DNA of 63,998 nt, the filler included, from Malassezia furfur (lineage: Eukaryota), in the NCBI GenBank assembly GCA_052055015.1. It is 6 parts of 6 records of this genome, joined end to end, with 100 filler letters (N's around TTAATTAATTAA, not from the genome) between each part and the next. Parts side by side here need not be neighbours in the genome. Positions count along the whole stretch, not along the records: positions 11,664 to 23,161 come from JBQJIT010000358.1; positions 23,262 to 34,687 come from JBQJIT010000359.1; positions 34,788 to 46,199 come from JBQJIT010000360.1; positions 46,300 to 57,580 come from JBQJIT010000361.1; positions 57,681 to 63,998 come from JBQJIT010000549.1; 1 more part is not named here. One strand, written 5' to 3'. Numbering within the stretch: the first letter of the stretch is position 1; every line of letters begins with the position of its first letter. Both the position numbers and the translations under genes were made by a program. The notes beneath the pieces are model-generated. The model was not told where the DNA came from and made no database searches. It saw nothing but the letters and a program-made list of their open reading frames with translations. Positions 12,054-61,133 of this stretch are shown here, piece by piece.

Positions 12054-12668
12054 TTAATAGCCTTGGCCATACCCTGCACCGCCCTGCGGGGGCTGGTGTG
12101 GCGGGTAGTTTTGCGCGGGTGCGCCGTAAGGCTGCTGACCGTACGCGGCATAATTGGCCTGCTGAGCAGGGTACGCCGCCTGAGGGGCGGGGTAGCCAGC
12201 AGGCTGTGCCCCGTAAGGCTGCTGCTGGTAGGCGGCATAGCCAGCCTGCTGGCCATAACCAAAGTTGGGCGGCTGCGCACCGACTGATGTGTTAGTGTGA
12301 CATGAAAGGACATGCGTACCGAATGCGCCGTAGCCACCCTGCGCGGCACCATAGGCACCCGCGCCGTAACCGCCGGTGAGGCCACTGTAGCCCAGGTTAG
12401 CGCCGCTCATGCCGCCCATCGGAGGACGGGAGTTGGCCATGTTGACGCGGATGCGGCGGCCATCGAGCTCTTGCTCGTTCAGAGCAGCGATCGCAGCATC
12501 AGCCTCCTGTTGCGTCATGAACGTAACGAAGCCGAAGCCACGCGAGCGACCCGTGTCGCGGTCCTTCATCACGATGTAGTCCGTGAGCTGGCCGTAGGGG
12601 CTGAACGCGTGTGCAAGACCATCATCGGTCGTGTTCCAGCTCAAGTTTCCGACGTAAACTTTAGCCAT
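12054..12668 (-). CDS. Glycine-rich RRM RNA-binding protein
   Basis: RNP2 VYVGNL, RNP1 RGFGFVTF, G/Y/Q-rich tail; 36-nt intron at 12284-12319 (GTACGC...CTAAC...CAG). Confidence 0.9.
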   Translation of the reverse strand: MAKVYVGNLSWNTTDDGLAHAFSPYGQLTDYIVMKDRDTGRSRGFGFVTFMTQQEADAAIAALNEQELDGRRIRVNMANSRPPMGGMSGANLGYSGLTGGYGAGAYGAAQGGYGAFGTHVLSCHTNTSVGAQPPNFGYGQQAGYAAYQQQPYGAQPAGYPAPQAAYPAQQANYAAYGQQPYGAPAQNYPPHQPPQGGAGYGQGY

Positions 12669-13490
12669 GCTAGATTGTGAACGAGAACGTTAAGAGAAGA
12701 TTCTTTGGAGTAGGGAAGCGAATCCAAACTGAAGGCGATCGATGCGCGCGAGAAGAGGGCGACACCACAAACACAAGACACGAAAGCAGAAACGAACCAG
12801 AAGTCGTCACACTAGCGCCACAACCCTTTCTACAAGCTTGGAATGATAGCGGAGCCACGACGATCAGTTAGTTGCCAAGGTCAAGGTCAAGCTTTGCCCC
12901 ACCCGCCCGGGGACCACATGGCTCGCGTCCCCGCCGCCTATCACGCCGGCCGACAAGCCTGGGCCCCCGCTTTAGTCAGGGTCGTGCGCACACAGGCCCG
13001 TGGAATGGGCCACGTGGGTTAGATCGGGAGATGAATGCTGCGGTGGCTCGGGCGTTCATGTGCCGCCACCGCTCCTAGCAGGTGGATGTTGCCGATATGC
13101 GTCGAGTTGCGTCTAGTGGCGCAAACATGGCCCGTCCATTAAGTCAGCGAGTGAATAGCGTTGCGTGCGAGAATTTCTACGCCGAATAATATCGCAAATG
13201 GAACCCTGGTCATCGAGCCCTGGCCGTGCAAAGGTATGTGCCACAATTAGGGGCAGGTTCTAGCACGTGCTGGACTGGTTCCTGATTCGCTGGTGTGGCG
13301 TGTTGTCGTCGGAGTTGCACACGCGTTTTTAGAGCTTGGAAACGTAGGCAGTTGGAACAAGACTCGGTGTACCACGCGTATCGCACCGTACCTCTCCTTT
13401 TCTATCGACCCCGGTGTGACGCCTGGCTTTGCGTAGCACATACACACTCGTGGTGTGCGCTCAGGGTTACCTTAGATGGTCCATTTTACG

Positions 13491-16331: not shown

Positions 16332-17501
16332 CTAGAGATCGTACTGGACAAGAAGGCCACGCACTACTTCGTACGTCAAGAACGAAGTACCCATCGAGGG
16401 CGCGACCTTTAGCAGGTTGGGAATCAGACCGTAGTAGAGGCCCTTGACTCCGCTACGGCGCACAATGTTGCGGATGGCATCGATCCCGCCTGGGTGAGTT
16501 GCATGGGACGTACTTTTGTCTTGGTAGCCGAGGTTGGAGTTGGTCATGCCTGCCACCTGCATCCGGCGGCGGATGACATCCAGTGGGTATGTAAGGGTCT
16601 GGCTTATTGCCCCCGCCCATGCACCACACACGAGCTTCATGAGTGCGCCGGGCGGTGTGCCGTCGGCGTCGGTAAAGAAGGTGCGCGCATGCTCGTAGAA
16701 ATAAAAGTTGAAGGCAACATAGGGGGCAACACCCTGTGGTGAGAAATAGCCAGTACGCACCATGCTGGTCGGCACGCATCCACGATACAGCCCACGCAAC
16801 CCGCCCTCTTCGCGGTACACTTTGGCGGTCATTTCGACCACGCCGGGCACGTGGAGAGGACCGTGTGGCCGACCGGAGTGCTCAATTTGGTATAGCGACG
16901 CGGACGCAATCGAGATACGTGAGCGCACAAGATCCAGCGGGTATGTTGAAACCACACTGGCAATACCCGCAGTGGCACCCGCAACGAGCTGCACCAGCCC
17001 CTTGTGCTTGGTCTCGGTGTGCTCGGTGCGCTCGGTCCTGCCCAGAATGGTCTCGACGGCGACCGGGTGCGAAAGCCATCCCTTCACAGCCTCGTAGGTG
17101 GTGAACTGGACGGCACTGTACGGTGCAATGCGCAGGCAGTTGATCCCGTTTCCCCGCATGAATCCCTTGAAGCCCTCTTCGCGCCAGATGCGGCTCAAGC
17201 CGTTCCAGACGCCCGAATAGGCATGTTTTTCGCCCTTGACCGGCGTCGGCTGGACTTGCCTGGGTAAGTGAGGAAACACACATGATGACTGGGTAAGCAA
17301 AGGACACCTACTTTTCAGCCGCTCCAGCGGACTCACGACCGTCCGGCTCGCGGCACCGGCAGCGCCGCCTGCGATAAACGTAGACCACTGGAATGCGCTG
17401 CCCGACTCCTCTGGAGTTGTCTGCTCCGAGTTTTGTGTTGGCATGGGAGACCGATTGGGTACTTCGGTGCGCTGTTCTGCTGGGTCGTGTCTAGTGTGCA
17501 T
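16332..17501 (-). CDS. Mitochondrial carrier (SLC25; YPR011C/SLC25A42-like)
   Basis: Three carrier motifs: PLERLKIIMQ (after splicing), PLDLVRSR, PLDVIRRRMQ. Introns at 17289-17311, 17260-17281, 16734-16760, 16490-16513. Alternative start at 17444. Confidence 0.9.
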   Translation of the reverse strand: MHTRHDPAEQRTEVPNRSPMPTQNSEQTTPEESGSAFQWSTFIAGGAAGAASRTVVSPLERLKSRCPLLTQSSCVFPHLPRQVQPTPVKGEKHAYSGVWNGLSRIWREEGFKGFMRGNGINCLRIAPYSAVQFTTYEAVKGWLSHPVAVETILGRTERTEHTETKHKGLVQLVAGATAGIASVVSTYPLDLVRSRISIASASLYQIEHSGRPHGPLHVPGVVEMTAKVYREEGGLRGLYRGCVPTSMVRTGYFSPQGVAPYVAFNFYFYEHARTFFTDADGTPPGALMKLVCGAWAGAISQTLTYPLDVIRRRMQVAGMTNSNLGYQDKSTSHATHPGGIDAIRNIVRRSGVKGLYYGLIPNLLKVAPSMGTSFLTYEVVRGLLVQYDL

Positions 17502-17636: not shown

Positions 17637-20600
17637 CTACGAAAAGCCCTTCCAGAGCGACGAGCCGCCGCTCTCCTCGGACTTGGCGGAGGTCAGGTCC
17701 GAAGAGATAACGCGGTGCACATAGCAGAGCTGGGTCAGCAAGCAAAAAACGTACGTAGTCGACGTAGCTCATCGCGTCGTTGTTCTGGTCCTCGACGAGG
17801 TTGTTGGCGAGTTCCACTTCCACTGCGGTCAGTCTTGGGCTCGGCATACGTACTCCCGTCGCGGTTTTGGCGCGCGATGATCACTTGGAGCGTCGGCTTG
17901 CAGCGCTGTGCGGCAAAGCCTGCAATCATGCTGCGCACCTGCTTGGACAGTTTCGTCGGCAGGTTCGGCAAGCTGGTCATGCGCGGATCGAGTTCGTCCA
18001 GCGAGCCGACGCCGTACAGGTCCTCCAGCAGCTTCGGCGAGACCTGGGCGCCGAGCCAGAGCAGGCACCACTCGCCGTTCTCCAGGAGGTAGGCGCCATG
18101 CGGCTCCATGCGCGCATAGCTCGGGCGCATCAGGTGCGGGCACTCGGTGATCTTCAGCAGCGCGTCCTCCTCGGCCTGCTTCTCGGGCGAGAGGCCCTCG
18201 CGCGGCACCACCGGCTCGCCGTCTGTGGGCGCGAGGCGGTGCAGCGCGACCATGCGTGGGTACAGCAGCGCCATGGTCGACCCGACGCTCAGGCCAAGGA
18301 GCAGGCGGATGAAGTACACACGCACGTCCGACGTCACGTTCCCGCCCTTGATGGCCTTGTTCTTGATCAGCGCAAGGATGTAAAGCGGGAACAGCTTGAA
18401 GCTCTCTGGCAGGATGAGCTGCCCTGCGCTCGTCGACGACGCGCAGTTGCGGCGGTACGCGGTGAGGATGGCAACACACTTGGACGTGAGGTAGCTCCGC
18501 ACGTCCTTGAGCGACTTGGTGTGCGCCAGCGTGACGGCCTCCTTGGCGTAGAACGCCATGGCGCTGTCCATGTCGGCATACCGGAACACGTTGCCGAGCG
18601 CCGCAGTGACTGGCACGGCCATGGTATGCACACGCACGCGGCGCTCGCCCGTAGCGGTGGTGTACAAAACGGCGCACTGGAAGTAGGCCTCCTGCGACTC
18701 GTCCAGCTTGCCGTCGTGCTTGACAAGCGCGGTGAGCGCCTTGTCCGCGTCCCACGTGCCGAGCTCGAGGTCGGTGAGCGAGTGTGGGTGGAAGTTGCCG
18801 TAGTGCTTCGCGATGCGGAGCCCGGTGGAGCAGCGGATGCGCATCGTGACGTTGTGCGCCGTCTCACGCAGCACGGTGCGCTGCACCTCGGCAATGACGC
18901 GCGCGCCGTCGCGCACCGGGTCGAAGCGGGGGTGGAAGAACACCTCGCCGCCGGTCTCGGCGGTCATGTGCCCGATCGTCGCAACGTCAATGTACTGGCT
19001 CGGGAAGAAGAAGGTGTTGACGCCGACGCCCGCGAGCGCAAATTCCTCGCCCATCTGCCGGTAGAAGGCGTCCTGCACACCGAACAGGTTCTTTTCGCTG
19101 TCCGTGCCGTACAGCTTGGTGTCCTCACGGTGCTTGAGCTTGCCGGGGCCCACCGTCGGGATGGTCGACAAAAACAGGTTGAGCTGTCCGCCGACCGCAG
19201 CGAGCGTCGCCTCCGCGGCCCGCAGTGCGGAACCGAGCGCCGCCTCGGACGAGGTGGTGTTGGCAAAGTTGGCCGGCAGGTCGCGCAGCAACGACTCGAT
19301 CACCGAGCGCGACGCCCACGGGTCGACAAGTAGGCCGCTCGAGATCGGGATAAAGGGGTCCGCAATGTCCGCCATGACCATCATCTGCGCCTGGCCCAGC
19401 TCAGGGTCCAGGCTGTAAAAGTGCAGCGCCTGGTCAAACGTCAAGAAGCCCACGCGGCTGCCGGGCGGCAAACCAAAGCCGGGGCTGGCATCGGTCGGCG
19501 CACCCTCGGCGGGGCCATAGAGCGCCTCGCGGATCGCCTGGCAACACACCTGCAGCGCGCCGCACCGGACCGCACTGAAGCTCACATCGATCACGAAGAA
19601 GTAGGTCAGCGGACGCGGCGCCCGCACGGTCGTCTGGCCCTTGCCGAGGTTCAGCGTGCCGAGCGCCGCCTCGCCCGCGGCCTTGGCGGCCCGCGCCGCC
19701 GACTTGGTCGCCGGGTCGTCGGTGTCGTTCGCGAGGTTGTCCGCCATGCGCTCGACGCTCTCCTGCATGCGGGACGGCGTGGTGAGTTGCAGCGTGCTGG
19801 CTCCCAGCACACCCACGGGCGTCGGCAGCATGTGCGACACGTCGAGTGACGTCTGCACCGCCCAGTACTCGGTCGGCACGGGGAAGTCGACCGAGCCGTG
19901 CGTCAGTTCGGGGCGCTGCTCCAGATCCACACGCCGCCCAGAAATGTCCAGGTTGCAGAAGTAGTCCGGCGCCACGTCCGTCGCGTTCCCACACAGGCTG
20001 CAGATCCACTTCATGCCACCCTCCACAAACAGGCACCACGGGTTGATGTACCCGCGGCACCGCTTGCATCGCGGCGGGCCGGTCTCACCCATCTGCGCAA
20101 GCGGCACGGCAGCTTCGTCGGCACGCAGCTGCGCAAACGGTTGCACTGTGAGCGCGATCGGCAGCTTCGACGTGGCGGCAACCTCGTCGGTAGTCGGTAC
20201 ACAGTAGGTCGTCAGCCGCATAAACTTCGGCGAGCAGTTCCCTTGATCGATCGCCGCAAAGTTGGTCGTGCTCAGTGGCAGCCCTTCACGGCTGCACGTG
20301 CCAAAGAACTCGTGGTTGAAGAACTGCTGGTCAGCATACTGCGCATCCACGGGCGCAGGGATCTGGTCGGGGTCGATCTTGGGTCGCGCACCCTGCCCCG
20401 GTGCGCCCATCCCAGACACGGGCGCACTCTGTGCCGTAGGCATCCCCGGCGCACCGCCCATAGCAGTGCCGGTGCCCGCGGCCTGTGGCAGTGCGTTCGG
20501 CGGCATCCCCGGCGCGCGTGCCGCATTCGGCGGCATCACACCACCGTTCTGCGCAGCGAGCGCCGCCCGGTTCGCCATCAGCTGCGCCTGCGAAATGGCA

Positions 20601-21367
20601 TTGCGTTGCCCGGGAATCTGATCGAGCGCAGTGTCCATATCCATGTCCCCCGTGCTGCCGGTCGGCGTGTATGCCGTGTTGGCGGGACCGCGCGCAGCCG
20701 CAGGGTCCTGCTGCCACGCAGCCTGCGGCGGCGGCGGACGTGCCGTGACGTCGTTCCAGCCAGACGAAGCCGGCGCTGCATCCTGGTGGTAGGCACGCGC
20801 GGCACGCTTCGAGCGCGCCGGACCCATCGGCGGGCGCACGGGCGGCGCAGAAGGCGTCCTGGGCGCCGAAGGCGTGCCCGGCGCGGACGGCGTACCCACC
20901 GCCATGCGGTTCATCCCGCTCTCCAGACCCGTCTGTGCCGTGCCAGGACGACTTCCAGGCGCGGGCGAGCGTGCAGGAGGGCGCGGCGAACGCGGCGGCA
21001 GCGGTGTACCCGCACCAGGTGGACGCGGAGACCGAGGAGGCAGCGGTGCACCGGCGCCGGTGGCGCCCGCCGCAGGAGGGCGCGGCGAGCGCGGAGGCAT
21101 CGGCGCAGTGGGCGGGCGCGGCGAACGCGCCTGCGGCATCGGGCTGCGGCTCGGGTTCGCCACGCGTGGGTTCATCGTAGACGCAGCAGTGCCAGCAGCG
21201 GGGCGCATCGCCGGCGCGCCCGCAGCCGCTGGTGGCCGCACGGCTTGAGCGCCGTTCGGACGAACAGCCGGAGGGCGAACGCCTAGAGGTGAGACGGACA
21301 TGGACGACATACCCTGCGCGGGTGGGCGAGGCGAAGGCCCCCGCATCATAGGAGGACGTGAGTCCAT
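17637..21367 (-). CDS. SEC24: COPII coat subunit Sec24 family (Sec24C/D, Sfb3-like)
   Basis: Pro-rich N-terminus, Zn finger RCKRCRGYINP...WICSLC, trunk FVIDVS, GQLILPESFKLFP. Introns 17823-17853 and 17730-17754 restore the ending SYVDYLCYVHR. Confidence 0.92.
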
Positions 21368-21541: not shown

Positions 21542-23131
21542 ATGCCGCGTCTGATTCTGGTCCGGCACGGCATTACAGAGTGGTCCAAGGATGGGAAGCA
21601 TACGGGCCGCACAGATATCCCGCTGCTCACAGAAGGTCTCGTGGAGGCCGAAGCATTCGGGAAACAGCTCGTCGGGCGAGGCCCGGAGGCGGTGATCGAC
21701 CTCGACGCGATGCACCGCCTGGTGCGCAGCCCGCGTCTGCGCTGCAAGCAGACCACCGATGCTGTTTTTGGCTCAGAGGAAGAGCGCAAGCAAAAGCACC
21801 TTCCTGATGTCCTGGTGGACGACGACCTGCGCGAATGGGACTACGGCGCGTACGAAGGTGTCAAGACGAAGGACATTCAGAAGACGCGCCCGGGCTGGGA
21901 CGTGTTCCGCGACGGCTGCCCCGACAGCGAGACCGACCCTAACCAGCCAGGAGAGCTGCCTGAGCAAGTCGGTGCACGCGCCGACCGCGTCTTGGCACGC
22001 GTGCGCAAGTTCCACGAGGAAAACCACAACGTGGTCCTTGTGACACACGGCCACTTCAGTCGCGTGCTCATCGCACGCTACCTGCGCCAGCCCGTTCAGT
22101 CTGGCGCCTTGTTTGACATGGAGACTACTGGCGTGGCAATCCTGGACTACGCGCATCATTCGCTGGACGAACCGGTCCTCAAAGCCATGTTCTCGCCCAA
22201 GCTCTACCCACACACGCCAAGCACGGGCCACGAAGAATTGCAATACCTCAACCTTGTTGCGAACGTTATTCGCAATGGCAACGTGCGCCAAGACCGCACC
22301 GGCACGGGCACGCGTGCGTTGTTTGCGCCGCGCTCTACGCTCAAATTTAGCTTGCGTAACAACACGCTGCCACTGCTCACCACCAAACGCGTATTTTTCC
22401 GCGGCGTGCTCGAAGAGCTTCTGTGGTTTATTTCAGGCAACACGGATGCTAACTGGCTGGCGGAGCGCAACGTGCACATCTGGGATGGTAATGGCTCTGC
22501 TGAATTCCTCGCGAGCCGCGGGCTCGGACACCGCCGTCCGGGCGACTTGGGTCCGGTATATGGTTTCCAATGGCGGCACTTCGGCGCCAAATACGTTGAT
22601 GCCGACACTGACTACACGGGACAGGGTGTCGACCAGCTGGCGCAGGTCATTCATCAAATCAAGACGAATCCCACGGACCGCCGCATTCTGCTCTCTGCAT
22701 GGAACCCACCTGACATGCCACTCATGGCCTTGCCGCCCTGTCACATTCTTTGCCAATTCTTCGTTACCCCGCCGACCCTTGAGGAGGCGGCGGCAGGGCG
22801 CAAGCCGCAGCTCTCGTGCCAGATGTACCAGCGCTCGTGCGATCTGGGCTTGGGCGTGCCCTTCAACATTGCGAGCTACGCGCTACTCACCCACCTCATT
22901 GCGCACGTCACGGGATGTGAGGCGGCCGAATTCACGCTGGCCATGGGTGACGCTCACGTGTACCTCGACCATATCGAGCCGCTGCAGCAGCAGCTGATGC
23001 GCGAGCCTCGGGCCTTCCCCACAATTCAAATTAAGCGGGACGTGAGCAACATTGACGATTTCCGAGCGGACGACTTCGAGGTCATTGGCTATCAGCCGCA
23101 CGGCAAAATTGACATGCGCATGAGCGTGTGA
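21542..23131 (+). CDS. CDC21: Fusion: histidine phosphatase (PGM family, Shb17-like) plus thymidylate synthase
   Basis: N-domain [42 protein letters not shown]-domain [55 protein letters not shown]. One intronless ORF. The symbol refers to the TS part. Confidence 0.92.
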
Positions 23132-23261: not shown

Positions 23262-24475
23262 CACGCACGCCCGCCGCCGCGTCGGCGCGCACCGAGGACG
23301 CCGACTTGGCCCGTGCGATTGCGCTCTCCTTGCAAGACGCCGCGCCGAACGCCACACGCGACGCACCGCCGCCCACGGGCGTCACGGCGGGGCGCGTCGC
23401 CGAGGGCACCGATGAGGACGACCCCGACCTGGCCGCCGCGATCGCCGCGAGCCTGCGCGATCTGCCGCCTGAGCCGATCGCACGCGAGGCGCCGGCCGCC
23501 CTGTCGATGCACGGCTCGGCGGGGACGCCGGCGCGCAGCGTCGCGGGTGACGCGAGTCGATCGGCGCCCACGGGCGTGCCGCTGCGCCCGTCGTTGGAGC
23601 TGGACGTGCGCGATATCGACAATGTGCTCACCTTCTCCCAGACGGTGCTGCAGCCACATGCGCCGTGGAAGGCACGCATTGCGCAGCAGGGCATGCCGCG
23701 GCCCGTGCAAAACATGTACGAAAAGGCCGCGACGTCGCGCGTGCGCGTGGTACGCAACCTCGACGAGGGCACACACCGGCTGCGTGACCTGGCGGCGATG
23801 CATGATCAGCTGTCCGAGGCCGTGCGTATGTACGATCGGCTGCTCGACGCGCAAATTGGGGGGCCGCGCGGCGCCGTGCAGGATGCACCCACGCGTGTGG
23901 CCGGAGGAGCGCATGCAGGAGCGCCCTCCGCCGCGCTCTATGCGCCGTCCGCGCCTCCCGACCCATACGCCGCTGAGCCCCACGCCGCAAGGTATACCCC
24001 GTCGGTGCCGAGCGCCGCGCCCTATGCTCCCTCGGCTCCCTCGGCTCCCCCTGCTCCGTTGTATGCGCCTTCGGCGCCGGCCATGCCGCGCGCCGCGCCG
24101 TATGCTCCTTCGGCGCCGGACACGCTGTATGCTCCCACGGCGCCCCCTGCCCTCGCGGCGCTAAGCGCGCCGTCGCATACCCCCTCGGCGCCGAGCGCCC
24201 CTCTCGAGTATGGTCCGTCGGCGCCGTACGCACCCTCGGCGCCGCCCGAGACCGCGTCTGTGCCCTCGGCGCCGGCGCTGTCGATGCCGTCCGCACCGAC
24301 ACACGTCCCCAGCGCGCCGCCGAACCCCCTCGGGTCGGAGCGCGCGCATGATACCCCCCGCGCGCATGTGGAGCCCACGTCCCCCCCTGTATATGCCGGC
24401 TCCCGTGCGTCGCCGCACCCGCCGGACGCCCCCTCGCGTGCCGAGCGTGACGAACCTCTGCTGATTGATTTGTAG
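23262..24475 (+). CDS. VPS27: ESCRT-0 subunit Vps27/HRS, C-terminal part
   Basis: Two UIMs (EDADLARAIALSLQD, EDDPDLAAAIAASLRD), GAT-like helix (MHDQLSEAVRMYDRLLD), PSAP array, terminal clathrin box LLIDL. Confidence 0.85.
23938..24322 (+). repeat. Degenerate coding repeat (YA)PSAP in Vps27
   Basis: 13 P[S/T]AP motifs counted in the translation. Confidence 0.8.
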
Positions 24476-24550
24476 TGGGAAATGGGCGAATTTGTTGATA
24501 TGGTGGAGGTCCCCGGTACGCCGCTTCCCAACTTCTAGTGCATCGCGAGC

Positions 24551-26031
24551 ATGGCGCCGAACACGGTCGCAGTGGTGGGTGCAGGCCCCGTAGGATGCCT
24601 GACGGCCATCGGGTTTGCCGAGCGTGGCTACGATGTGGCGCTGTACGAGAGTCAGCCCGAGTCGGCGTTCACGAAGCAGCCCACGTCGTCGCAGCGGAGC
24701 ATCAACCTCGCCGTGTCCGTGCGCGGCATCACGGCGCTGCGTGCCGTGGGCGGTGCCGGCGACGACCAGCACCCGTCGATCGCCGACAGGGTGCTGTCCG
24801 AGGCCGTGCCGATGTCGGCGCGCATGATCCACGTGCACGACGGCGACGGCCACGTCCGCCTCGACCGGCAGCCCTACAGCACCAAGGGCGAGGTGCGTGG
24901 GAAGGCTGACGCAGTGTATCTACTCGTTTGAGCGTGCCAAGCTGAACTGGATGCTGCTCCAGCAGGCCGCCGAGCACCCCCGCGTGCAGCTCTACTTTCA
25001 GCACACGCTCGTGCATGTGCACCGTGCGCCGGACGACGACGAGGTCCAACTCGTGTTCCGTGTGCCGGACCGCATGGAGCCCGCGCGGTACGTATGCTTG
25101 GAGCTGACGCAGTGCCACCTATGCATTGGTGGCCGCGTGCGACGGTGTGCATTCGGCGGTGCGGACCAAGGTCGCGCCGCTCGCGCGCATCAACACCGTG
25201 CAAGAGTACATCGACTCGGGCTACGTCGAGCTGCGTGTGCCGCCGGGCAAGTCGGACTCGCTGTCGCCCGCGTGGCAGCTGTCCGTGTCGTGCCTGCACA
25301 TCTGGCCGCGACACGACTACATGCTGATTGCGTTGCCGAACGTCGACGGGTCGTTTACCTCGACGCTCTTTGCGCCGTTCCGCGTGTTTGCCGAGCACTG
25401 CCGCGACCGGGCGTCCGCGCTGGCCTTCTTCCGCGCCAACTTCCCCGATGCGCTCGCGGTGATGGATGCGGACGAGCTGGTCGAGCATCTCACGTCGCGC
25501 ATGCCGAGCTCGCTCGGCAGCGTGCAGTGCACGCCGATGCACGCGGGCTCCTCGGTCGTCTTGCTGGGGGATGCGGCGCACGGCATGGTGCCGTTCTACG
25601 GACAGGGCCTCAACTGCGGCCTCGAGGACGTGCGTGTCTTTTTCGAGGAGCTGGACGCCGCGCTTGCGGCGCACGGCAAGCTGCCCGACGCCCAAGGCGT
25701 GGCACTGCGCAACTACACGGCACACCGCACCGCCGATGTGCGTGCCATCCAGCTGCTCGCCCAGGAGAACTACACCGAGATGCGCAGCAAGGTCGTCCGC
25801 CGCGACTACCAGCTGCGCAAGTGGCTTGACGGCGTGCTGTCGCGCACGCTGCCCCCCGGCGCGTGGAAGAGTCTGTACGAGATGGTGACGTTTTCCAACA
25901 TGGGCTATGCGACGGCACGGTGCACCGAGCTACGGCAGCAGCGCATCCTGCGCGACACCCTCTCGGCGGTGGGCCTCACGCTTTTGTGGGGTGCGTCGTG
26001 GGCGGTGTACCGTGCGTGTCGGTCTGCGTAG
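24551..26031 (+). CDS. BNA4: Kynurenine 3-monooxygenase
   Basis: GAGPVG, RSINLA, CDG, LHIWPR, GDAAHGMVPFYGQGLNCGLED. Introns 24893-24914 (22 nt) and 25088-25112 (25 nt) join the three frames. Confidence 0.93.
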
Positions 26032-29000: not shown

Positions 29001-29080
29001 ATCCCGCTTTCTTTGGAGGTCTTAAACACATGCTTGGCGGTGTCGTCGCCGAAGAGCAACCGTGCGGGGTACGCCAGCAT
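25976..29080 (-). CDS. HID1/Ecm30-family Golgi protein
   Basis: LNCCRVLMRVVP, LLFHSGFT, IWESGIG, LCSLLN. Introns 26303-26325 and 26193-26214 give the C-terminus FVWT...WLTSYVFG...GLFTETHAKLFEI; stop at 25976-25978. Confidence 0.85.
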
Positions 29081-29139
29081 CGTCGTGCACGCCGAGCGAC
29101 CGTGCGGCGGCGGCCGTTTACGTCAGCAATTCAGCTACC

Positions 29140-29556
29140 ATGGCGACGTTGGCGCGCCGTGTCGACAAGACGGATCCGCGCAATGCAGGCGCAGTGCGTC
29201 CTTTGACGATGCCTGTGGCCTGGATCAAGGACGAGAGTCTCACCTACGAGACGCTGCTGAGCGGCATTACGTAGGTGCCGAGGTGCTGACGCAGGCTGTT
29301 TGCCTCGATGTCGATCATTTCGCCCTTCCCTGACGCAACGTCCCTCGCGGTGATGCTCGGCGTTGCACAGATCATCAACATCAAGCCGCACGCGCCCATG
29401 AAGGACTCCAAGGACCTGTCGTCGAACGCGTACGCGAGCTTCCTGTACGTGCCCTACCCTAACCTTCCAGGTTCACGCTGGTGATCACTGTGTTTATCGC
29501 TATGCGCAAGGTACTTGGTCACTCCCCGTACACTAACGCAGCTCATTGTCGTGTAG
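29140..29556 (+). CDS. Small multi-TM protein, possible Asterix/WDR83OS (PAT complex) homolog
   Basis: Four exons (introns 29271-29294, 29445-29470, 29511-29541) give about 110 aa with an N-terminal DPR..AVRP and about three hydrophobic segments. Family assigned by resemblance only. Confidence 0.6.
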
Positions 29557-34568: not shown

Positions 34569-34605
34569 CGTGAGGCGGACAGGAACGGACGCCACCGACG
34601 GTGGC

Positions 34606-34626: not shown

Positions 34627-34687
34627 CCGGCCTCGGCTGCGGCGTGCAGTTTTAGTGGATGGGCGAAGAAGCGCGAATCGGCACCGA

Positions 34688-50553: not shown

Positions 50554-52043
50554 CTATTGTTGGGGATCAGCCGACTGCAAGTAGGGCTTAAGCTGCGGGG
50601 TAGTTAGTCATCCGGGGTCGCGTGGATGCGAGCACGTACCTTCTGCAACCGGCGGCCGGCCTCGGCAATCTGGTTGTCTTTGCAGAAGGCAAAACGAATG
50701 TAGTTCTCTCCGACATGCGCATTCTCGTCCGAATAGAACGCAGTGACAGGGATAGCGACCACATCACACACTTTCCCCAGGAACCAGCACATTTGGTAGT
50801 CACGAGGCTTCTTGCGCACCTCGTCGGGGAAGGGGAAGTCGGCGGGGATCTGGATGCGCGACGCATCAACCAGCACGAAGTAGGAACCGTGCGGCACAGA
50901 GTAGGGCAGCTGTAATGAATCCAGCGCATCAAACAGTTCCTGTCGCCGCGCCTCATAGTGTTCCCTCTGCGTCTCAAAGAAGCGGTGCGCGCTCGCCTGC
51001 TCGAGCCCGATCGCTGAGCCTTCCTGGGACGCGGAGTTGACGCTAAACGTGATGCGCACGTGTGCGGCCATCGCTGGCGCAACGAGGTGGGGGGCGCCCA
51101 CAATCCAACCCACGCGCCAGCCCGTGCACGAGAACGTCTTGCCCGCGCTACCAATCGTCAGCGTGCGCTCCCACATGCCCTCGATCGATGCAATGCGGAT
51201 GTGCTCCTGGCCGTCAAAGGTCAAGCAATCGTACACCTCGTCGGCAATGACCAAGATGTCGTACTTAATGCACAGTTGCGCGAGCCGCTGCAGTTCGGCG
51301 AGCGAACACACCTTGCCAATCGGGTTGTATGGCGTGTTGAGGAAGAGCGCCTTGGCGCGCGGGCTCGCGAGTTTTTGCTCCAACAACTCCCAGTCAAACT
51401 GCCACTCGTTCGCCGAGGGGCGCTGCTCCTTGCTGGAGGGAGGGATCATGGGCACATAGATAGGCACGCCGCCGTTGAAGCTGGCCTCGCACACGTACTG
51501 GTCAAAGAAGGGCTCAAACATGATCACCTCGTCTCCCTCCTCGAGGAAGCCCGCGAGCGACGAGTACATGGCCTCATTCGCACCGGCGGTAATCACCATT
51601 TCTGTCTCGGTGTTGAGTGGTACACCGAGGTCTGGGCGCTGTGCAGGCATGCCAGCGTCATCCAGCCGCACGACTCCGGCGGAAAGGTCGGTGTCCTCCG
51701 GCGGCTTGTGGAAGGACTGTGAATAAACGTCGCGCACCGCGGCGCGCAGGCGAGGACGCCCCCGCGCGTGCGAGTAGTGGTGCAGCTCGACACGCTCATG
51801 CATTTCTTTGGTCAGCTCATCCAGAATGAACGCCGGCGGCTTCCAGTTCATGAACCCTTGCCCGAGGTTCACCGCGGTCGGGAACACCATCGGGTTGAAA
51901 AAGGTCCATACATCCACCCCGCGCGCCAATTCGGGCTGGACACGCGGCGCGGGGCTGTTGAGGAATCGCGTAGGCTTATTCCACGAGCTCATGGCACGTA
52001 TCAAGGACTGGGAGGGGTGTATCCGTGATGGCCGAAGAGTCAT
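50554..52043 (-). CDS. BNA3: Kynurenine aminotransferase (class I PLP aminotransferase)
   Basis: VNLGQGF, ITAGANE, EPFFDQY, LNTPYNPIGK, DEVY, GSAGKTFSCTGWRVGW, IRFAFCK; intron 50593-50639. Alternative start at 51992. Confidence 0.88.
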
Positions 52044-52130: not shown

Positions 52131-53487
52131 ATGCAATCGGGCATGGTGCACGGTCCTCCCATGCTTCGACGGCCCTGCAGTGTTGCGCTCGGGTGTGTGC
52201 GCGGCGTGCACACTACAGCGCCGGTCGCGCGGCTCTGGCCGCGGCCACGCCTGATGCCACGCCGGCGCGTGTTCGATAAAAATGATACCCCGTCGCTGCT
52301 GGCTACTCAGCGTGTGAGTGCCGAAATCGCAGTGACGCGGCCTCCGATCGGTCGCGCCATCTTCTTCTTTGGCGCCGTGAGCGTGCTGGCGTTTGGCGGG
52401 TGCGCTGCATGGTCGGTGAGCAAGACCGAGTGTCTTGTACAGAATGGGTCGGCCTCGCTGTGGTCGCCCATGACCAACTTTTTTGCAGACCAGTACGACG
52501 CAAAACGGCTCAACGAAGCCGACCGCACCGCGCAGTTTGAACGGTCCAATGCGCGCCTCCTTCGCCTTGCGCGCACACTACGGGGCCTCCCTGAGTTTGT
52601 GCGCGAGCCCATTCTGCGCGTGTCACTGGCGGTGACCGAATGGTACACCGAGCTGCCAGCGTACCAACAGGCAGCGGTGCCTGTCGTGGCTCTGAACACG
52701 GGCGTGTTTACTGCCTGGCTGCTTGCGCCGCGCCTTGGATTTTCCCGATTCATGCAGCGGTACTTTACGGCGCGCCCAGCCTCCGGTCAGGTCCTAACCA
52801 TGCTCACATCCGTGTTCAGTCACAAGGCGCCGGCCCACTTTTTGTTCAACAACCTCGCGCTATGGTCGGTGGGGGCCAGCGCGCTTACGGCCCTCGCCGT
52901 GCAGCAAGTGTGGCGCAGCCGCAAGCAAAGTGTGCCGGATGCCAACCCCACGCCGCAGTTCCTTGCGTTCTTTGTCACGGCGGGCACGTTCGCGTCGCTC
53001 GCGAGCCATCTAGTGACCGCTGCGCGTTGGCGTTTGGCATCGACGATTTTGCGTGACGCTACGCGCGCGCTGCCCCGTGCATCCACCTCGGTGCGTGCGC
53101 AACTGCACGCGACTACCCGCGTTGCGAGTGCTGCATTGATGCAGCTCGCGCAGCGCGCGAGCCTTGGTTCGAGCGGCGCGATTTATGCGGCGTTTGTACT
53201 GTCGGCGTGCGCCTATCCGCAGGCGAGCATCAGTATTATGTTTCTGCCATTCACGGCGATCCCCATCCAATGGGGCATGGCAGGGTACGTCGTTCATCTG
53301 ACACAGACTCGTTCTGTTGGACGTGATTGGGCTCGTGCGTGGCTGGCGCGTGTTTGATCATGTTGCGCATCTCGGCGGCGCACTGTTCGGCCTCTTCTAC
53401 TATGTATACGGCGCAGCGATCTGGAACGCTGCCAAGCGCCAGGTGGCCCAGTTCCGGCATGGCAAGCCTGGGCCCCAGTACGCGTAA
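52131..53487 (+). CDS. PCP1: Mitochondrial rhomboid protease Pcp1/PARL
   Basis: SVFSH...HFLFN, SLGSSGA (catalytic Ser). The 22-nt intron at 53285-53306 is needed to reach FDHVAHLGG (catalytic His). Alternative start at 52161. Confidence 0.88.
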
Positions 53488-54051
53488 TCACGCAAACCGG
53501 CGAATCGCTGCAAGCTCGTTCAGGAGCGACTCGAGCTGCGCTTCGTCCTTGCTGGCGAGTCTGTGTGAGAGCGATCCACATACGTAGGAATCAACGTGCG
53601 TGCCTCGTCCACGTCCGACACGGCCAGGTTCGCAAGCTGTGCCATCTCGAACTGCGTGAGTTGGAGGCCCTTGTCGTCGGACACGGTGCCGTCCAGGTCG
53701 GGTTGCGCCGCGTGTTTGATCAGCAGCCTGGGTCAGCGCAACACGAGACGTACGCGCGCACTTCACGGATGGTCGACTGTTCCTTGTACCGGCTGAACTC
53801 GTCGACGTATTCCTTGGTCTTTTGCGCGACACTGTGTGAGTGGGATGCACGTACGCTGTGCCCTGGGTGTCGCCCTCCATCGTTTCGCCTGGGCGCGAAA
53901 AGAAGAGGAACACCTCGGAGATGAGCAGGCACCCAGCGTCCTGGAATTCTGTGTGAGGCACACACCACGTACCTGGTCCTAACCGACCCTGACTCGCGTC
54001 TTCCACTTCGACATTGCCGCGGCGTCGCCGCTGGAACGCCGGCACGGACAT
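53488..54051 (-). CDS. RPB4: RNA polymerase II subunit Rpb4
   Basis: EDA..RLGPEF...CLLISEV, KTKEYVDEFSRY, FEMAQLANL, EARTLIPTL. Introns 53949-53972, 53832-53854, 53728-53753, 53561-53583. Confidence 0.92.
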   Translation of the reverse strand: MSVPAFQRRRRGNVEVEDASQGRLGPGTWCVPHTEFQDAGCLLISEVFLFFSRPGETMEGDTQGTAYVHPTHTVSRKRPRNTSTSSAGTRNSRPSVKCARTSRVALTQAADQTRGATRPGRHRVRRQGPPTHAVRDGTACEPGRVGRGRGTHVDSYVCGSLSHRLASKDEAQLESLLNELAAIRRFA

Positions 54052-54085: not shown

Positions 54086-55122
54086 ATGGCGGACGCCGGC
54101 GCTGCGGACGCGCGCGCCGCGCGCGACGCGCCAATGGAGCTGGAGACGAGCGGCGCGTATTCGCTGCTCTACACGCTCTATGGGCACACGCGGTCCGTCG
54201 CCAGTGTCGTGTTTTCGCCGGACGGGGAGCAGCTGGTGTCTGCTGGCGCCGATCGGCAACTGCAGATCTGGTCGACGCGGACAGGCCGGTTGCTGCACAC
54301 GCTCGCGGGTCATGACGGTGGTGTGAACAGCGTGTGCTGGACGCGCGACGGCAAACATGTTGCCAGTGCATCGGACGATCGTACCGTGCGTGTTTGGGAG
54401 GTGGAAAAGGCGCGACTGGTGTATACGTTTACGGATCATACGTCCTATGTCTTTTGTGTCGCGTGCCATCCGCAGAGCACGCTGCTGGTCAGCGGAGGCT
54501 TTGACGAGACGATCCGGCTGTGGGATCTGCAGCGTGGGACATGTCACCGTACGATCTCGGCGCATTCCGAGGCCGTGACCGATGTCGACTTTAGTCGCGA
54601 CGGGACGATGATCGCCTCGTGCTCGTACGACGGTCTGATGTATGTGTGGGTGTGACTGACGCAGTCGTCTATGGGATACGAGCTCGGGGCACTGTCTGCG
54701 CACGCTGCAGCACAGCGACCAGGCGCCGCTCGTATCTGTGCGCTTTTCGCCGTCGTCGCTGCAGCTGTTGGCCATGTCGCTCGACAGCGCGGTGCGTCTC
54801 TGGGACCTGGCCAACGCGCGCGTGCTGAAGACCTATACGGGTCATGTGAATACAAAATACGCGGGTACCGCGCTCTTTGCGTACCTGCCGTCCGCCGCGC
54901 TGCCCCAGACGCTTGTCGTCGCGCCGAGCGAGAGCCGCGAGATATACCTATGGGATCTACAAACGAAGCGGGTCATTCAAAAACTCGCTGGGCACCGCGA
55001 TGCCGTTGCTGCGATTGCGGTACGTGTGCTGGCTGACGCAGGTGCATCCCACGCTGCCCGTGCTGGCCTCAGCGGGCCTCGAGCAAGACGCGTCCATACG
55101 GCTTTGGGTGTATAGCACGTGA
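54086..55122 (+). CDS. SWD3: WD40 protein, WDR5/Swd3-like
   Basis: ASASDDRTVRVW, LVSGGFDETIRLWD, AHSEAVT.VDF, SCSYDGLIRLWD, KTYTGHVN.KY. Introns 54640-54664 and 55020-55041. Confidence 0.85.
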
Positions 55123-55164: not shown

Positions 55165-57580
55165 ATGGCGACGGTGCGACGCACGCAGGGTGCACGCCCT
55201 CCCCGCGTCGTGTCGGCGAGCGGTGCGCATCCCGCGCATCGGGTTGCGCCACGCGCAGCGTCGGCGAGCCATGCAGAATGCCGGCGCGGCGGAGAGGCGA
55301 ACATGAAAGTCGTCGTGCGCATTCGGTGCGTGTGTGCCGTCCAACTGACGCAGGGGCACGGCGGCCGATGGGGCGAATGTGCTGCAGACGACAGGGCCGC
55401 GTGGGAGCCAGGTGCATGTCGATGCGGACATGCCGAGTGCCGCATCGCACCTGCCCACGCTTGGCACGCAGCAGGGCAGTGGGCGGTCCAAGACGTATAC
55501 CTTTGACCATGTGTTCAGTGCGGAGGCGGACCAAGGGATGGTGTACCAGGACGTGGTGAGCGGTGTGCTGGACGAGGTGCTGCTCGGATACAACTGCACG
55601 GTGTTTGCGTACGGGCAGACGGGCACGGGCAAAACGTACGTGGTGTGGGGCGCTGACGCAGGCATACGATGGAGGGCGACCTGGCGTCGTACATGGGCAC
55701 CTTCGCGCCCGATGCGGGCATTATCCCGCGCACCCTGTTCCGTCTGTTCCATGTGCTGCGGGCGCGGACGGACGAGTTCAGCGTGCACATGTCGTTTGTC
55801 GAGCTCTACAACGAGGAGCTGCGGGACCTGCTCAGTGCCGAGAGCCCCACGCCGCTGCAGACCAGTGCGCTGCGCATGTACGAGGACAAGCACAAAGGGG
55901 TTGTGCTGCAGGGCCTGGAAGAGATCCCGCTCACGAGCGCCGAGCACGGATTGCGGCTTCTGCGCCGCGGGAGCCAGAAGCGGCACATTGCTGCGACGCG
56001 GTGCAACGAGAGCTCGAGCCGGTCGCACTGCGTGTTCACGCTGCATGTGCACGTCAAAGAGACGGGCGCGCGCGGTGAGGAGGTGCTGCGCACCGGCAAG
56101 CTGAACCTGGTGGACCTGGCGGGCTCGGAAAACATTGGGCGCAGCGGCGCCGAGAACAAACGCGCGCGCGAGGCAGGCATGATCAACCAGAGCCTGCTCA
56201 CGCTCGGGCGGGTGATCAACGCGCTGGTCGACGGCCAGGCGCACATCCCGTACCGCGAGTCGCGCCTGACGCGCCTGCTGCAGGACTCGCTGGGCGGGCG
56301 GACCAAGACGTGCATCATTGCGACCGTGTCGGACGACCGTGCGAATCTGGAAGAGACACTGTCGACGCTCGACTATGCGTCGCGCGCCAAGTCAATCAAG
56401 AACCGCCCCGAGCTGAACCAGCGCATGGCGCGTGCCGCGCTCATCCACGAGTACGTCGCCGAGATCGACCGCCTGCGTGCCGACTTGACGGCGACGCGCG
56501 AGAAAAACGGCGTGTACGTCGACGCGGACAACTGGGCACGCCTCGAGGCGGAGCGGGGCGAGCAGGCCAAGACGATCGACGAGCTGCGCCGCGCCAACGA
56601 GGTCGCGCAGAGCAAGCTCGCGAGCATGCACGAGCAGCTCGAGCAGAACACGCAGCTGCTCACGCAGCGCGACGCGGAGTGGAGCGCCGCCGAGACGCGG
56701 CATGCGGCGCGCATCGCCGAGGTCGAGGCGTCGCTGCAGCAGGTCACGCAGCTCTCCGGCGCGCTGCAGGAAGAGACGCGTCTGCACCGCGCGCGCGCAC
56801 GCAACGAGCAGCGCCTGTACGACCTCGCCGCGTCGCTGCACCGCGCCGCGAACGCGTCGTCGAGCGACATGGATGCGCTGCATGCCAAGCTCGAGCGCCG
56901 CGCCGCGAGCGAGGCCGAGGCGCGTGCGTCGCTCGCGCTCTTCTACGAGCAGATCGAGGGCGTGTGCGCCGCAGCGGACCGCGAGCCCACGGCGCTGCAC
57001 ACGAGCCGCGACGTGCTGCAGCGCGCCGTGCACGCCGAGCTCGAGCGCCTCGCACATGCGCTCGACGCGGCGCCCGAGGTGCCGGCGCGCGCGCTCGACG
57101 CCGTGCGCCGCGCGTTTGCGCAGCTCGAAAGCGAGCACGCCACGCTCGTGCAGTCGCTGCAGAGCGAGCTGCGCGAGGCCCACACGCGCCACGTCGACGC
57201 TGTGCACGCCGCCGCCACGCTTGTGCAGCACGTCGACCGGCGCGTCGGCGCGCTGGGCGAGCGCATGGACGCCCTCCAGCAGCACACACACGCGGCGTCG
57301 CACGCCGAGGTACAGCGTGCGACGCAGCACACCGAGCGCCTTGCGGCGCTCCTCGCGCAGGAGCACGAGCAGACGCACGAGCTGCGCCGGCGCGTGCTGG
57401 GCGTCGTCGATGCGTTTGACGCGGAGCGCGAGACGCGCTTCGCGCAGGCGACGCAGGCCGCCCACGCCGAGCTCGCGGCGACGAAGCGCAGCGTCGCCGA
57501 CGCGCGCCGCGTGCACACCGAGCACCATGCGGCGCTCGCGGCCGAGCGCGACGCGCTTGCGGCCGAGGCGCGGTGGGACG
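55165..57580 (+). CDS. Kinesin-5 (BimC/Cut7) motor, 5' part
   Basis: [61 protein letters not shown]. Introns 55326-55353 and 55636-55661. Confidence 0.92.
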
Positions 57581-58496: not shown

Positions 58497-58927
58497 TCAG
58501 AAATCGACCGTGCGGCCACCGAACGCCCACTCCGACTTCCAGCGCAGCGGATCCTTCTTGGGACCACCGATCTCGCCCGTCTCAGGGTTTGTGTCGCCCT
58601 CAAAGTCCGCGCCAGGCCCTTGCAGCGCGTCGGGGTGTATGTTCACCGGATTGCCCTCCTCATCCTCAGTCACGAACGACGACTTGTCTGAACACGTTAG
58701 CAAAGCAACCTACTCTGGTTCTCGCGGACGAGGCGCTCAAACTCGAGCTGTTCCTCCTTCGGCAGCGGTGGCGGCCCTGCGCGCTGGAACGGATTATCAG
58801 AGTCGGAGCGCCGCACGATCGTCGTCATCAGGGTGCGCCGCGCCAACGCAGGTGTCATTACATTCCGAGGCATGCACACCCGGTGCGCACTGTGCGCGAA
58901 GCGAAGCGCCGTCATTGATCTCGTCAT
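58497..58927 (-). CDS. SDH8: Succinate dehydrogenase assembly factor 4
   Basis: GPPPLPKEEQLEFE, FEGDTNPETGEIGGPK.DPLR...W..GGRTVDF; intron 58688-58713. Confidence 0.88.
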
Positions 58928-58973
58928 GGTTCGTTAGGCAGGTATCAATCAAGTGGAGGCTCCACGCCACCGG

Positions 58974-61133
58974 CTACAGACAATGCGCTGGGCGCGCACG
59001 TGGAGGGCGAGGCGACGCGCGCGCGGCCGGCAGGCGCCCGGACGCGCCAACGCGCCCTGCGGGGCTCGCGGGCATTGGCGCGCGGGGAATAGGTGCACGC
59101 GCAGCCTCAGGGCGCGTGAGCGCTGTGCGTGCGCCCTCTGGCCGTAGAAGCGACGACCGGCGCCGCCGCTGCTGGGCAAACGAGATGCGCTGCCGCTGGG
59201 CGACCGGCACATTTTCCTGCTCACGCCCGACCGCAGGTGCCACGGCCTGCCGGCCCTTGGCGGGCCCGGGAACAAGCTGCGGGGCATCGCCGGGTGCCTC
59301 GTCGTCAACTGGGCGTGCCAAGGCGTCGAGGGGCACGCGCGTGACCCGTTTCAGGAAGGGCGACGGGCGCTCATCCTCGCTCACTAGGTGCCACTGCGGG
59401 TCCTGTGCGAGCAGACGCTCGCTCGGCGCCGGCGCTGATGCCGCACATGCCGGCTTGGTGGGTGTATCGAGTCCCGCAAGCACGCGGGTCGGCATGGGCG
59501 AGGCGGCGCTCTCGGCCTCAGGCAGGCTCTGTACGCGCCAGATCGTCGAGGCGTCCTTCATCGAGCAGTCGGACACGTCCGCCACGGCTTTCTGCTCAAT
59601 GTGCCGCAGGCGCGCAAGCGCCGGCAGCACAGGTGGCGCCGCGGCACGCTCGGCTGTCTCGCCCTCGTCGGACGCCTGATCCTCCCATTCGTCGGAGGGC
59701 GGCGTGTTGACGGACGGCGCACCGTCGACCGGGAGCATCGGCGTACCCTCGTCGGACGTACACCCTTTGGACATGCGGCGCGCGGTGCGTGGCGTGACCC
59801 GCAGCGGCAGCCGCCCTGGCATGGCTGGCCCGTCACTGAGGCGCCGCGCCGCTGCCTCGTCGCGCTGGGAAAGCTGCGCCTGCAGTGCCGCAATGTGGGC
59901 GTCTTTCTGGGCGAGTGTGTCTTGCAGCTGGACGCGTTCGCCGTGATACCAGTGCTCGTAGCGTTGCGTGAGCTCGGCCTGCATCGCCGCACACGCCTCT
60001 TCACGCTGCTGTACCTGAGCCTGCTGCGCCTCGAGCGCCCGCTCACGCTCCTCGACGTGCGCAGAAGTGCCCGCGTGCTCGAGCGCCGACTCGCGCGCCT
60101 GCACGGCCTGCTCGCGCGCCCCGACCGCGGCGGCCCGCGCCTCGACCTGCTCGCGCTCGCGTTGCACTTTGCGGTGCAGCTGCCCAAGCTCGTGCATGCG
60201 GCACGCCCACTTGATCTGGCGTACCTGGAGTAGCTGCCGCGTTGTGGGCCGGCGGCGGTGGTCGAGCTGGAGCATTGCGTTGACCGCGTCCTGCAGGTCG
60301 CGCGAGTAGGCGCGCGGCAGGGAGGGCACGACACCCTGCTTGATTTTCCGCGTGAGCTCCGCCTGGTTCGCGGCATCGAATGGCGGCGAGAGGGCACACA
60401 GCTCGTATACGATGCACCCGAGGGCCCAGATATCCGACTTGATGTCGTACTGCTGTCCCGATGCGAGCTCGGGGCTCATATAGTACGGCGTGCCGACGTA
60501 GGTGTTGGCGAACGCCTGTGCGGCGATCTGCTTGCTCAACCCAAAGTCGCCGAGCTTCACGTTCTGGTCCACGTCCAAGAACACGTTTTCGGGCTTCAAG
60601 TCCCGGTGCAGGATGGCGTGTGCGGTGCCGCGCGTTGTGCCGACGGCCGTATTGGGCGGCGCGCGGTAGTGGCACGCCTCGAGCGCCGCGGTCATCTGTG
60701 CAAAGTACGTCCACACTGTGTCTTCCGGGAGATGCGTGCGTGTGCGCCGGCACCGCTTGATGATGGTGCCGAGGTCGCCGCCCTCGCACAGCTCCATGAC
60801 AATGTAGAGAATGCTGGCGATGTCAGTGCCTCGTGCAGCCACTTACCCGTTCTCTGTATCCACATAACGCTCTTCGTAGCGCACCACGTTCTCATGGTGC
60901 AGCGTGCGCAGGATGTTCACCTCGGAGACGATGTGTTTGCGATCGCGCTCGTTCATGCGTTCGAAGTTGAGCTCCTTGCGCGCGAACAGGGCGCCGTCGG
61001 ATTTGCGCCGCACCTTGCGGATGAGCCCAAACGTGCCGCTGCCGATCACATCAAGTGCCTCGTATCCCTCAAGCACGTATGCCGACGCGGCGGAGGTCCG
61101 CCGGTCCGTCGCCCCGCTCGCGGCGTTCCGCAT
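58974..61133 (-). CDS. NimA/Kin3-family kinase with coiled-coil tail
   Basis: IGSGTFGLIRKVRR, ARKELNF, EVNIL, ILHRDLKPENVFL, DFGLSK, TYVGTPYYMSPE; intron 60814-60846. Confidence 0.92.

Follow-up and report, generated by a model that had tools for sequence, protein, structure and literature searches.

A lower length limit near 21 nucleotides for the putative spliceosomal introns of Malassezia furfur, and its possible division into two distances

How small a spliceosomal intron can be, and what sets that limit, is still an open question, and most work on it has been done in organisms that do not lend themselves to manipulation. The question is raised here by a stretch of the genome of the yeast Malassezia furfur, called the window in what follows: 63,998 nucleotides (nt) in six pieces joined by N-linkers, for which the initial annotation had reported about 45 introns on five contigs, mostly of 22-33 nt, with a floor at 22 nt. 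Curation yielded 46 introns on five of the pieces, three of them probable only (Table 1). They measure 22-47 nt with a median of 26, 41 of the 46 falling at 22-33 nt and six at 22 nt, in good agreement with the early count. The six 22-nt segments lie where they had been placed, those at 17260-17281 and 26193-26214 on the minus strand, and all have GT...AG ends and a CTNAC motif. A scan of the window for donor, branch motif and YAG found 8, 7, 8, 6 and 7 matches at 22, 23, 24, 25 and 26 nt, whereas 20 Markov shuffles gave 0.5-1.0 for each length.

Two window proteins agree at 100% with M. furfur records over the searched part, other Malassezia species coming next. The M. furfur assembly comprises 13.68 Mb in 1856 contigs and holds two subgenomes; doubled M. 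furfur assemblies that stem from hybrids have been described (PMC4634964; this and the other published statements below come from extracts of the papers). Four window pieces have a second copy in the assembly, at 85-92% identity. For the piece at 23262-34687 no second-subgenome copy was found there, the best match being 75% over 0.7 kb, and either a collapsed assembly or the loss of one copy would account for it.

Length distribution and the two distances

Outside the window, 80 stretches of 10 kb (L046-L085 and L090-L129; 800 kb, 5.8% of the assembly) were sampled and split into a training and a held-out half. With the branch A allowed from position 10 and the tail from 4 nt, the scan of the 800 kb gave 11 matches at 14-20 nt, about 11 being expected, and then 59, 74, 108, 52 and 65 at 21, 22, 23, 24 and 25 nt, where 2-4 were expected for each length. 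The cliff stands at 21 nt in the training sample and also in the held-out half, with 5 matches against 5.5 expected at 14-20 nt, followed by 24 (1.8 expected), 45 and 57 at 21, 22 and 23 nt. Gene models of the sample were built with a gene finder written for this analysis, which imposes no length penalty at 14-35 nt and returned coherent proteins in the window. Its 788 calls included 468 high-scoring introns with a median of 24 and a mode of 23 nt; 411 of these have 30 nt or less, 224 have 23 nt or less, 51 have 21 nt and 4 are shorter. With most introns at or below 30 nt and a hard lower bound, M. furfur belongs among the tiny-intron lineages. One intron of 20 nt (L099:5122-5141) falls between residues 276 and 277 of human PPIL4 and has 20 nt in both subgenomes. 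Among nine subgenome pairs with a 21-nt copy, eight have 21 nt in both and none has a shorter partner. Judged by these counts, the sharp lower limit of the putative introns is 21 nt, rarely 20.

A floor of 22 nt thus describes the window and had to be given up for the genome, since 21-nt introns are common elsewhere, one of 20 nt is supported, and the other-subgenome copy of 55020-55041 itself has 21 nt. Window candidates of 15-21 nt proved to be donors nested in longer introns or coding sequence, as at 27378-27398 (HID1), 36514-36532 (FIS1 start) and 51717-51737 (aminotransferase frame). Given 51 of 468 introns at 21 nt, their complete lack among the 46 of the window has a chance of about 0.5%, so that the window samples the introns atypically. 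Of 8 alignments the window copy has the higher GC content in 7, and of 8 pairs that differ in length it is the longer one in 7; a subgenome bias was nevertheless rejected as the cause of the missing 21-mers, the other copies having 1 of 29 at 21 nt. Introns of 24 nt fall short of the number that independent spacing predicts (51 versus 69), possibly through selection against in-frame introns, and 21-mers show no such dip (56 versus 47).

The position of the branch motif suggests what this floor is made of. In the 800 kb, a branch A at position 15 was found 3 times (2 expected) and at position 16, 75 times (6 expected); a distance of 4 nt from the branch A to the intron end occurred 4 times against 8 expected, and one of 5 nt 311 times against 2. 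In the first sample each of the 32 strict 21-mers has its branch A at position 16, with 5 nt to the end. The floor would then be two distances, a branch A at position 16 at least and at least 5 nt from it to the intron end, giving a normal minimum of 16 + 5 = 21 nt and a rare one of 16 + 4 = 20.

The segments as introns

Four independent lines of comparison argue for introns, beginning with the subgenomes. In window and sample together, GT and AG are kept in all 87 high-scoring intron pairs, whereas length differs in 21 of them, in 19 cases by non-multiples of 3. The spacers diverge by 35%, as against 4.7, 2.2 and 26% at codon positions 1-3. Positions 1, 2, 5, -1 and -2 are unchanged in the 66 pairs of equal length, and the branch A is changed in 2%. 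No intron in these pairs has fewer than 21 nt.

The proteins agree with this. Pfam profiles run on across window junctions, for instance in WDR5, kinesin and rhomboid (52 exon pieces, many without a family), and excision of 24893-24914 leaves a monooxygenase colinear with homologues from Malassezia and other fungi. Removal restores the frame in conserved proteins, as in U2-type introns; the frame obligation that had been claimed for several genes stands for rhomboid, BNA4 and kinesin, is found also in WDR5 and the mitochondrial carrier, and has weaker Pfam support in RPB4. Six window intron positions are common to the syntenic metagenome loci L137-L141, which carry orthologues of five genes. 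Seven others, the 22-mers at 26193 and 29910 among them, have no counterpart in the metagenome orthologues, and the spliced proteins align straight through them.

Coding sequence or assembly errors might instead explain the shortest segments, especially the 21-mers that keep the frame: an in-frame stop is missing from 33 of the 51 modelled introns of 21 nt, and one 21-nt call in the window proved coding. The other 18 do have such a stop, and in RAD51 the 21-nt segment is an exact, stop-bearing insertion of seven residues relative to human RAD51, with protein continuity seen in the Pfam profile comparison as well. That comparison of introns of 21 nt or less covered 48 flanking exon pieces of 84 and was informative at seven junctions in five genes. 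Across the stopless 21-mers of SNF2, Mob1 and GWT1 (three times) the profile resumes at the very next position. A PDB search across the 21-nt intron of a homeodomain gene gave no match. Both subgenomes carry 21-mers with diverged spacers and the motif is in 16-fold excess at 21 nt, which makes coding sequence or assembly error a highly improbable source. By their sequence the segments are U2-type (major) spliceosomal introns, which would be excised from the RNA through a lariat.

Signals, mechanism and splicing machinery

Each intron opens with a strong six-base donor, followed by a spacer free to vary, the CTNAC branch site and YAG. Among 436 introns the donors were GTACGT (223), GTATGT (70), GTAGGT (61), GTGCGT (35) and GTAAGT (4), and the acceptors CAG (398), TAG (31) and AAG (7). 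No U-rich tract follows the branch: from the base after the branch A to YAG, C was counted 278 times, G 195, A 117 and T 73, so the lack of a polypyrimidine tract noted at the outset was correctly seen. The eroded signals of myxobolids and Stentor are not found, the donor hexamer and CTNAC being kept, in scans that are built on these motifs and under-sample weak introns.

In the spliceosome the donor pairs with U1 and then with the ACAGAGA box of U6, and U2 pairs with the branch region from five bases before the A to one after it. The whole intron would be recognized as one unit through its donor (by U1, then U6) and its branch site (by U2), and the 3' end would be the first YAG that can be reached from the branch, chosen mainly by distance. 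A 21-mer would leave about four bases between the donor hexamer and the U2 branch helix, hence the floor is most likely steric. Deletions would shorten the spacer freely down to a lariat loop of 16 nt, and those going further would be removed by selection; a published model of deletion bias against a threshold fits (PMC10245619). We consider it probable, at about 0.85, that these are ordinary U2-type introns of M. furfur eroded by genome compaction down to a spacing limit.

So few free bases between donor and branch helix could also speak for a spliceosome specifically remodelled in M. furfur, in which loss or truncation of U2AF, SF3b/RES, METTL16 or the U1 fold would have produced both the 16 + 5 geometry and the scarcity of A at donor position +4, beyond erosion alone. 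Human SF3b covers about 25 nt on the upstream side of the branch, and a far longer spacing is needed by model spliceosomes. In the 800-kb sample, A at +4 is found at 6 of 287 sites, which may recall, as a lead only, the move to other bases at +4 that is linked with METTL16 loss in Saccharomycotina (bioRxiv 2023.05.04.539401). The components that were tested argue otherwise: U2 small nuclear RNA (snRNA) has a canonical branch-pairing region (GUAGUA), U6 a canonical ACAGAGA box, and U1-70K and Slu7 are each present in two copies, modelled at 355-364 amino acids with an RRM and at 431 amino acids. Moreover, Stentor splices introns of 15-16 nt with all snRNAs present (PMC9505925). Compensating U2 or U6 changes for an unusual donor are not present; both proteins being there, loss of U1-70K was rejected, as was the idea that the 5-nt tail stems from a lost Slu7. 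The hallmark of reduced spliceosomes, loss of the U1 small nuclear ribonucleoprotein (snRNP) and of many core proteins, is not seen in the two proteins tested, and smaller losses could have occurred. An Rfam search of the genome for U1 snRNA was empty, which would favour remodelling, but it was likewise empty in every control genome and therefore shows no absence of U1. A pattern search for U1 gave 10 matches against 6 for the reversed control, and none of the 6 that were checked matched Rfam. The best candidate (L130; G000:C54:20350-20600, minus strand) has a U1-like 5' start and an Sm-like site about 165 nt on; it has no Rfam match and folds no better than shuffles (z -0.99). The initial annotation had held the spliceosome to be adapted to minimal introns. 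With the tested parts canonical or intact this is unproven and a specific remodelling appears less likely than not; the odds are about even that spliceosomal proteins are altered to allow such short introns.

Several points weigh against ordinary introns with a sharp floor. We infer splicing, its efficiency and the branch nucleotide from sequence. The 800 kb of the 13.68 Mb were taken from the largest contigs and include nine subgenome pairs (69 kb aligned), so that some introns enter the counts twice. The scans find introns with strong motifs, and weak or non-canonical shorter ones could escape. Branch A positions 10-15 combined gave 28 matches against about 17 expected, several of them tandem branch motifs in longer introns. 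Below 21 nt, the modelled 20-nt intron is validated and those of 16, 17 and 18 nt are unsupported. Gene-finder calls at 27378-27398 and 16599-16631 of the window were false, as was its fusion of the WDR5-like and kinesin genes. The empty U1 search belongs on this side too.

The genus, other tiny introns and the window

Short introns are already in print for Malassezia. In M. sympodialis, 5350 curated introns have a mean of 30 bp, 99% with RNA-seq support, against 50-65 bp in automated sets (PMC5389616, whose figure S8 plots the length distribution and may show the minimum); M. restricta has a median of 30, with an annotation minimum of 20 and then 15 (PMC9241646, PMC6473144); a review terms the introns of the genus very short (PMC7426719). 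The surprise is therefore limited, and presenting such introns as unexpected for Dikarya was overstated. As in M. furfur, introns near 30 nt in these two species are missed or stretched by automated annotation. The peak at 21-23 nt could on these figures be an ordinary state of the genus, hidden by annotation cut-offs and in no way particular to M. furfur, and 21-25-nt motif matches occur also in metagenome locus L137. Unlike the means or medians near 30 of the two species, however, M. furfur has its median at 24, its mode at 23 and the cliff at 21. At the five positions common to all five metagenome loci, where the window introns have 24, 25, 26, 26 and 31 nt, the orthologues measure 24-42 nt and exceed them in 21 of 25 comparisons; M. 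furfur hence lies towards the lower end of a genus whose introns are short anyway, on the small sample of five loci. A genus-wide state is a serious possibility, at somewhat less than even odds. No report of a 21-nt floor or of the branch geometry in Malassezia was found in literature mostly outside subscription journals, and the extracts of PMC8476143, PMC3560662 and PMC11649378 give no intron minimum for the genus. Short introns are thus known; what appears to be new here, in that we could not find it in print, is the abrupt floor and its resolution into two distances.

One intron of the Fe-S gene is present in all five metagenome loci and absent from the window. Together with the seven introns found only in the window (26193-33209 compared with L137-L141), it would represent recent intron loss or gain within the genus. 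For kynurenine monooxygenase (24551-26031), tblastn found no match in the syntenic metagenome loci spanning the interval beside HID1, which suggests that the gene was lost in the species of L137-L141.

The introns of Paramecium reportedly have 20-33 nt. Encephalitozoon cuniculi, with introns of 22-76 nt (PMC3629993), resembles M. furfur in the lower size range, the GT-AG ends and the strict donor and branch motifs. It has some 37 introns and a much reduced spliceosome with, in the extracts, no U1 snRNA identified, whereas in M. furfur introns number about one per gene and U1-70K and Slu7 are retained. A hard lower threshold is shared with Stentor (15-16 nt; PMC9505925), Mikrocytos (16-17 nt) and chlorarachniophyte nucleomorphs (18-21 nt; PMC9505925, PMC10245619). 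Lengths in these take one or two values, while M. furfur has a long upper tail and, unlike them, GC-rich introns with a full branch consensus. The 5-nt tail after the branch A is the same in Stentor, where the lariat loop has 10-11 nt against at least 16 predicted in M. furfur. Myxobolids and dicyemids (median 22-27 nt; PMC13644364) have the same length mode, no polypyrimidine tract and a canonical U2; their donor and acceptor are reduced to GTa and AG, whereas M. furfur fits a donor of six bases and a branch motif of five into 21 nt. The known exceptions listed in the extract of that 2026 paper on tiny animal introns are ciliates, microsporidia and dicyemids, and Malassezia is not named there.

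Gene finders had been expected to mis-annotate such introns, and public M. furfur models bear this out in a check of three genes, which is no survey. At the 22-nt monooxygenase intron six conserved residues are missing from P0001; P0121 runs on into the 23-nt HID1 intron and then ends; and P0136 is two residues short at 29910-29931. Together these records are correct at four introns, of 24, 25, 26 and 31 nt. The HID1 proteins of four other Malassezia species (P0122, P0125, P0127, P0128) end at the same point as P0121. With these three proteins damaged and 224 of 468 introns at 23 nt or less, a sizeable share of public models may be truncated or trimmed. The unnamed predicted proteins P0004 and P0137 read through in-frame or retained tiny introns, with short V-R...L-T-Q-like inserts; such inserts could serve to mine tiny introns from protein databases.

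The features of the window are listed in Table 1. The long gene at 17637-20914 is one we take to be Sec24-like. The modelled 3' ends of the monooxygenase gene (24551-26031, plus strand) and the HID1 gene (25976-29080, minus strand) overlap by about 55 bases. At 21542-23131 (plus strand) a single open reading frame of 530 codons apparently fuses two enzyme-like parts, presumably a phosphoglycerate-mutase-like part and thymidylate synthase.

Table 1. Putative introns and a microexon of the window, with the evidence for each. Profile positions are those on either side of the junction; L137-L141 are metagenome loci.
Coordinates	Strand	Feature	Evidence
12284-12319	-	36-nt intron, glycine-rich RRM gene	gene model; other subgenome keeps ends, 8 internal differences
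16490-16513	-	24-nt intron, mitochondrial carrier	other subgenome, Pfam profile
16734-16760	-	27-nt intron, mitochondrial carrier	other subgenome, gene model
17260-17281	-	22-nt intron	weak GTGTGT donor (GTACGT in other subgenome); Mito_carr profile 30 to 35 across two introns and microexon
17282-17288	-	7-nt microexon between 23-nt and 22-nt introns	kept in other subgenome; completes mitochondrial-carrier motif
17289-17311	-	23-nt intron	22 nt in other subgenome
17730-17754	-	25-nt intron, long gene 17637-20914	other subgenome, gene model
17823-17853	-	31-nt intron, gene 17637-20914	other subgenome, gene model; nested donor would give 27 nt
21283-21312	-	30-nt probable intron upstream of modelled start of gene 17637-20914	motif, other subgenome; unused by gene model
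24893-24914	+	22-nt intron, kynurenine 3-monooxygenase (BNA4)	excised junction colinear with homologues; six residues missing here in P0001
25088-25112	+	25-nt intron, kynurenine 3-monooxygenase	junction identical to P0001
26193-26214	-	22-nt intron, HID1-family gene	spliced tail aligns to P0129-P0132 and intronless orthologues in L137, L138, L140
26303-26325	-	23-nt intron, HID1-family gene	spliced tail aligns to P0129-P0132 and intronless orthologues; P0121 reads in and stops
29271-29294	+	24-nt intron, small uncharacterised gene	same position in 5/5 syntenic loci (35-39 nt)
29445-29470	+	26-nt intron	same position in 5/5 syntenic loci (31-34 nt)
29511-29541	+	31-nt intron	same position in 5/5 syntenic loci (27-34 nt)
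29790-29815	+	26-nt intron, uncharacterised gene 29723-30335	same position in 5/5 loci (32-42 nt); matches P0136
29910-29931	+	22-nt intron	absent from 5/5 gap-free orthologues; P0138 has the spliced junction; two residues missing in P0136
30053-30083	+	31-nt intron	syntenic metagenome loci
30151-30174	+	24-nt intron	syntenic metagenome loci
32914-32937	-	24-nt intron, protein kinase	absent from 5/5 orthologues
33176-33209	-	34-nt intron, protein kinase	Pkinase profile 59 to 62; syntenic loci
33470-33503	-	34-nt intron, protein kinase	same position in L137 (27 nt), L140 (49 nt)
34146-34170	-	25-nt intron, Fe-S assembly gene	profile 57 to 60; same position in 5/5 loci (24-38 nt)
35946-35969	-	24-nt intron, PX-domain gene	22 nt in other subgenome
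36693-36722	+	30-nt intron, FIS1	28 nt in other subgenome; Pfam profile
36825-36848	+	24-nt intron, FIS1	22 nt in other subgenome; profile 24 to 27
36927-36951	+	25-nt intron, FIS1	other subgenome, gene model
37778-37803	-	26-nt intron, NOSIP-like gene	25 nt in other subgenome
37940-37965	-	26-nt intron, NOSIP-like gene	frame opened to upstream ATG; other subgenome
38372-38409	-	38-nt intron, NDUFA5	other subgenome, gene model
38977-39003	+	27-nt probable intron	other subgenome; gene model with low score
42407-42438	+	32-nt intron, Zn-cluster gene	25 nt in other subgenome; Pfam profile
44231-44259	+	29-nt intron, Zn-cluster gene	other subgenome
44281-44309	+	29-nt intron	31 nt in other subgenome
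50593-50639	-	47-nt probable intron, aminotransferase-like gene	gene model and motif only
53285-53306	+	22-nt intron, rhomboid protease	Rhomboid profile 99 to 107; histidine segment on last exon; other subgenome
53561-53583	-	23-nt intron, RPB4	other subgenome, gene model
53728-53753	-	26-nt intron, RPB4	other subgenome, Pfam profile
53832-53854	-	23-nt intron, RPB4	other subgenome, gene model
53949-53972	-	24-nt intron, RPB4	other subgenome, gene model
54640-54664	+	25-nt intron, WDR5-like gene	WDR5 profile 159 to 161; other subgenome
55020-55041	+	22-nt intron, WDR5-like gene	WDR5 profile 272 to 275; 21 nt in other subgenome
55326-55353	+	28-nt intron, kinesin	26 nt in other subgenome; nested donor could give 22 nt
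55636-55661	+	26-nt intron, kinesin, adjoining P-loop	Kinesin profile 88 to 90; other subgenome
58688-58713	-	26-nt intron, DUF1674 gene	other subgenome, gene model
60814-60846	-	33-nt intron, protein kinase	Pkinase profile 70 to 73; other subgenome

A bolder proposal, which we regard as unlikely, is that thousands of introns are spliced by a spliceosome that keeps the U1 snRNP and the second-step factors but has changed the turn-taking of U1/U6 and U2-SF3b, possibly with METTL16 or U2AF function lost. If true, no other dikaryan fungus would have common introns as short as those of M. furfur, which would equal or undercut the minimum of E. cuniculi, and the yeast would offer a laboratory model for a spliceosome handling a 16-nt lariat. 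As regards ordinary U2-type introns eroded to a spacing limit, the reading preferred here, the floor points to the smallest spacing accepted by the splicing machinery of M. furfur. This organism is a culturable, transformable dikaryan skin yeast for which genetic tools have been published (review PMC7426719), and since the limit would be separable into 16 + 5 nt in such a yeast, it could be tested base by base.

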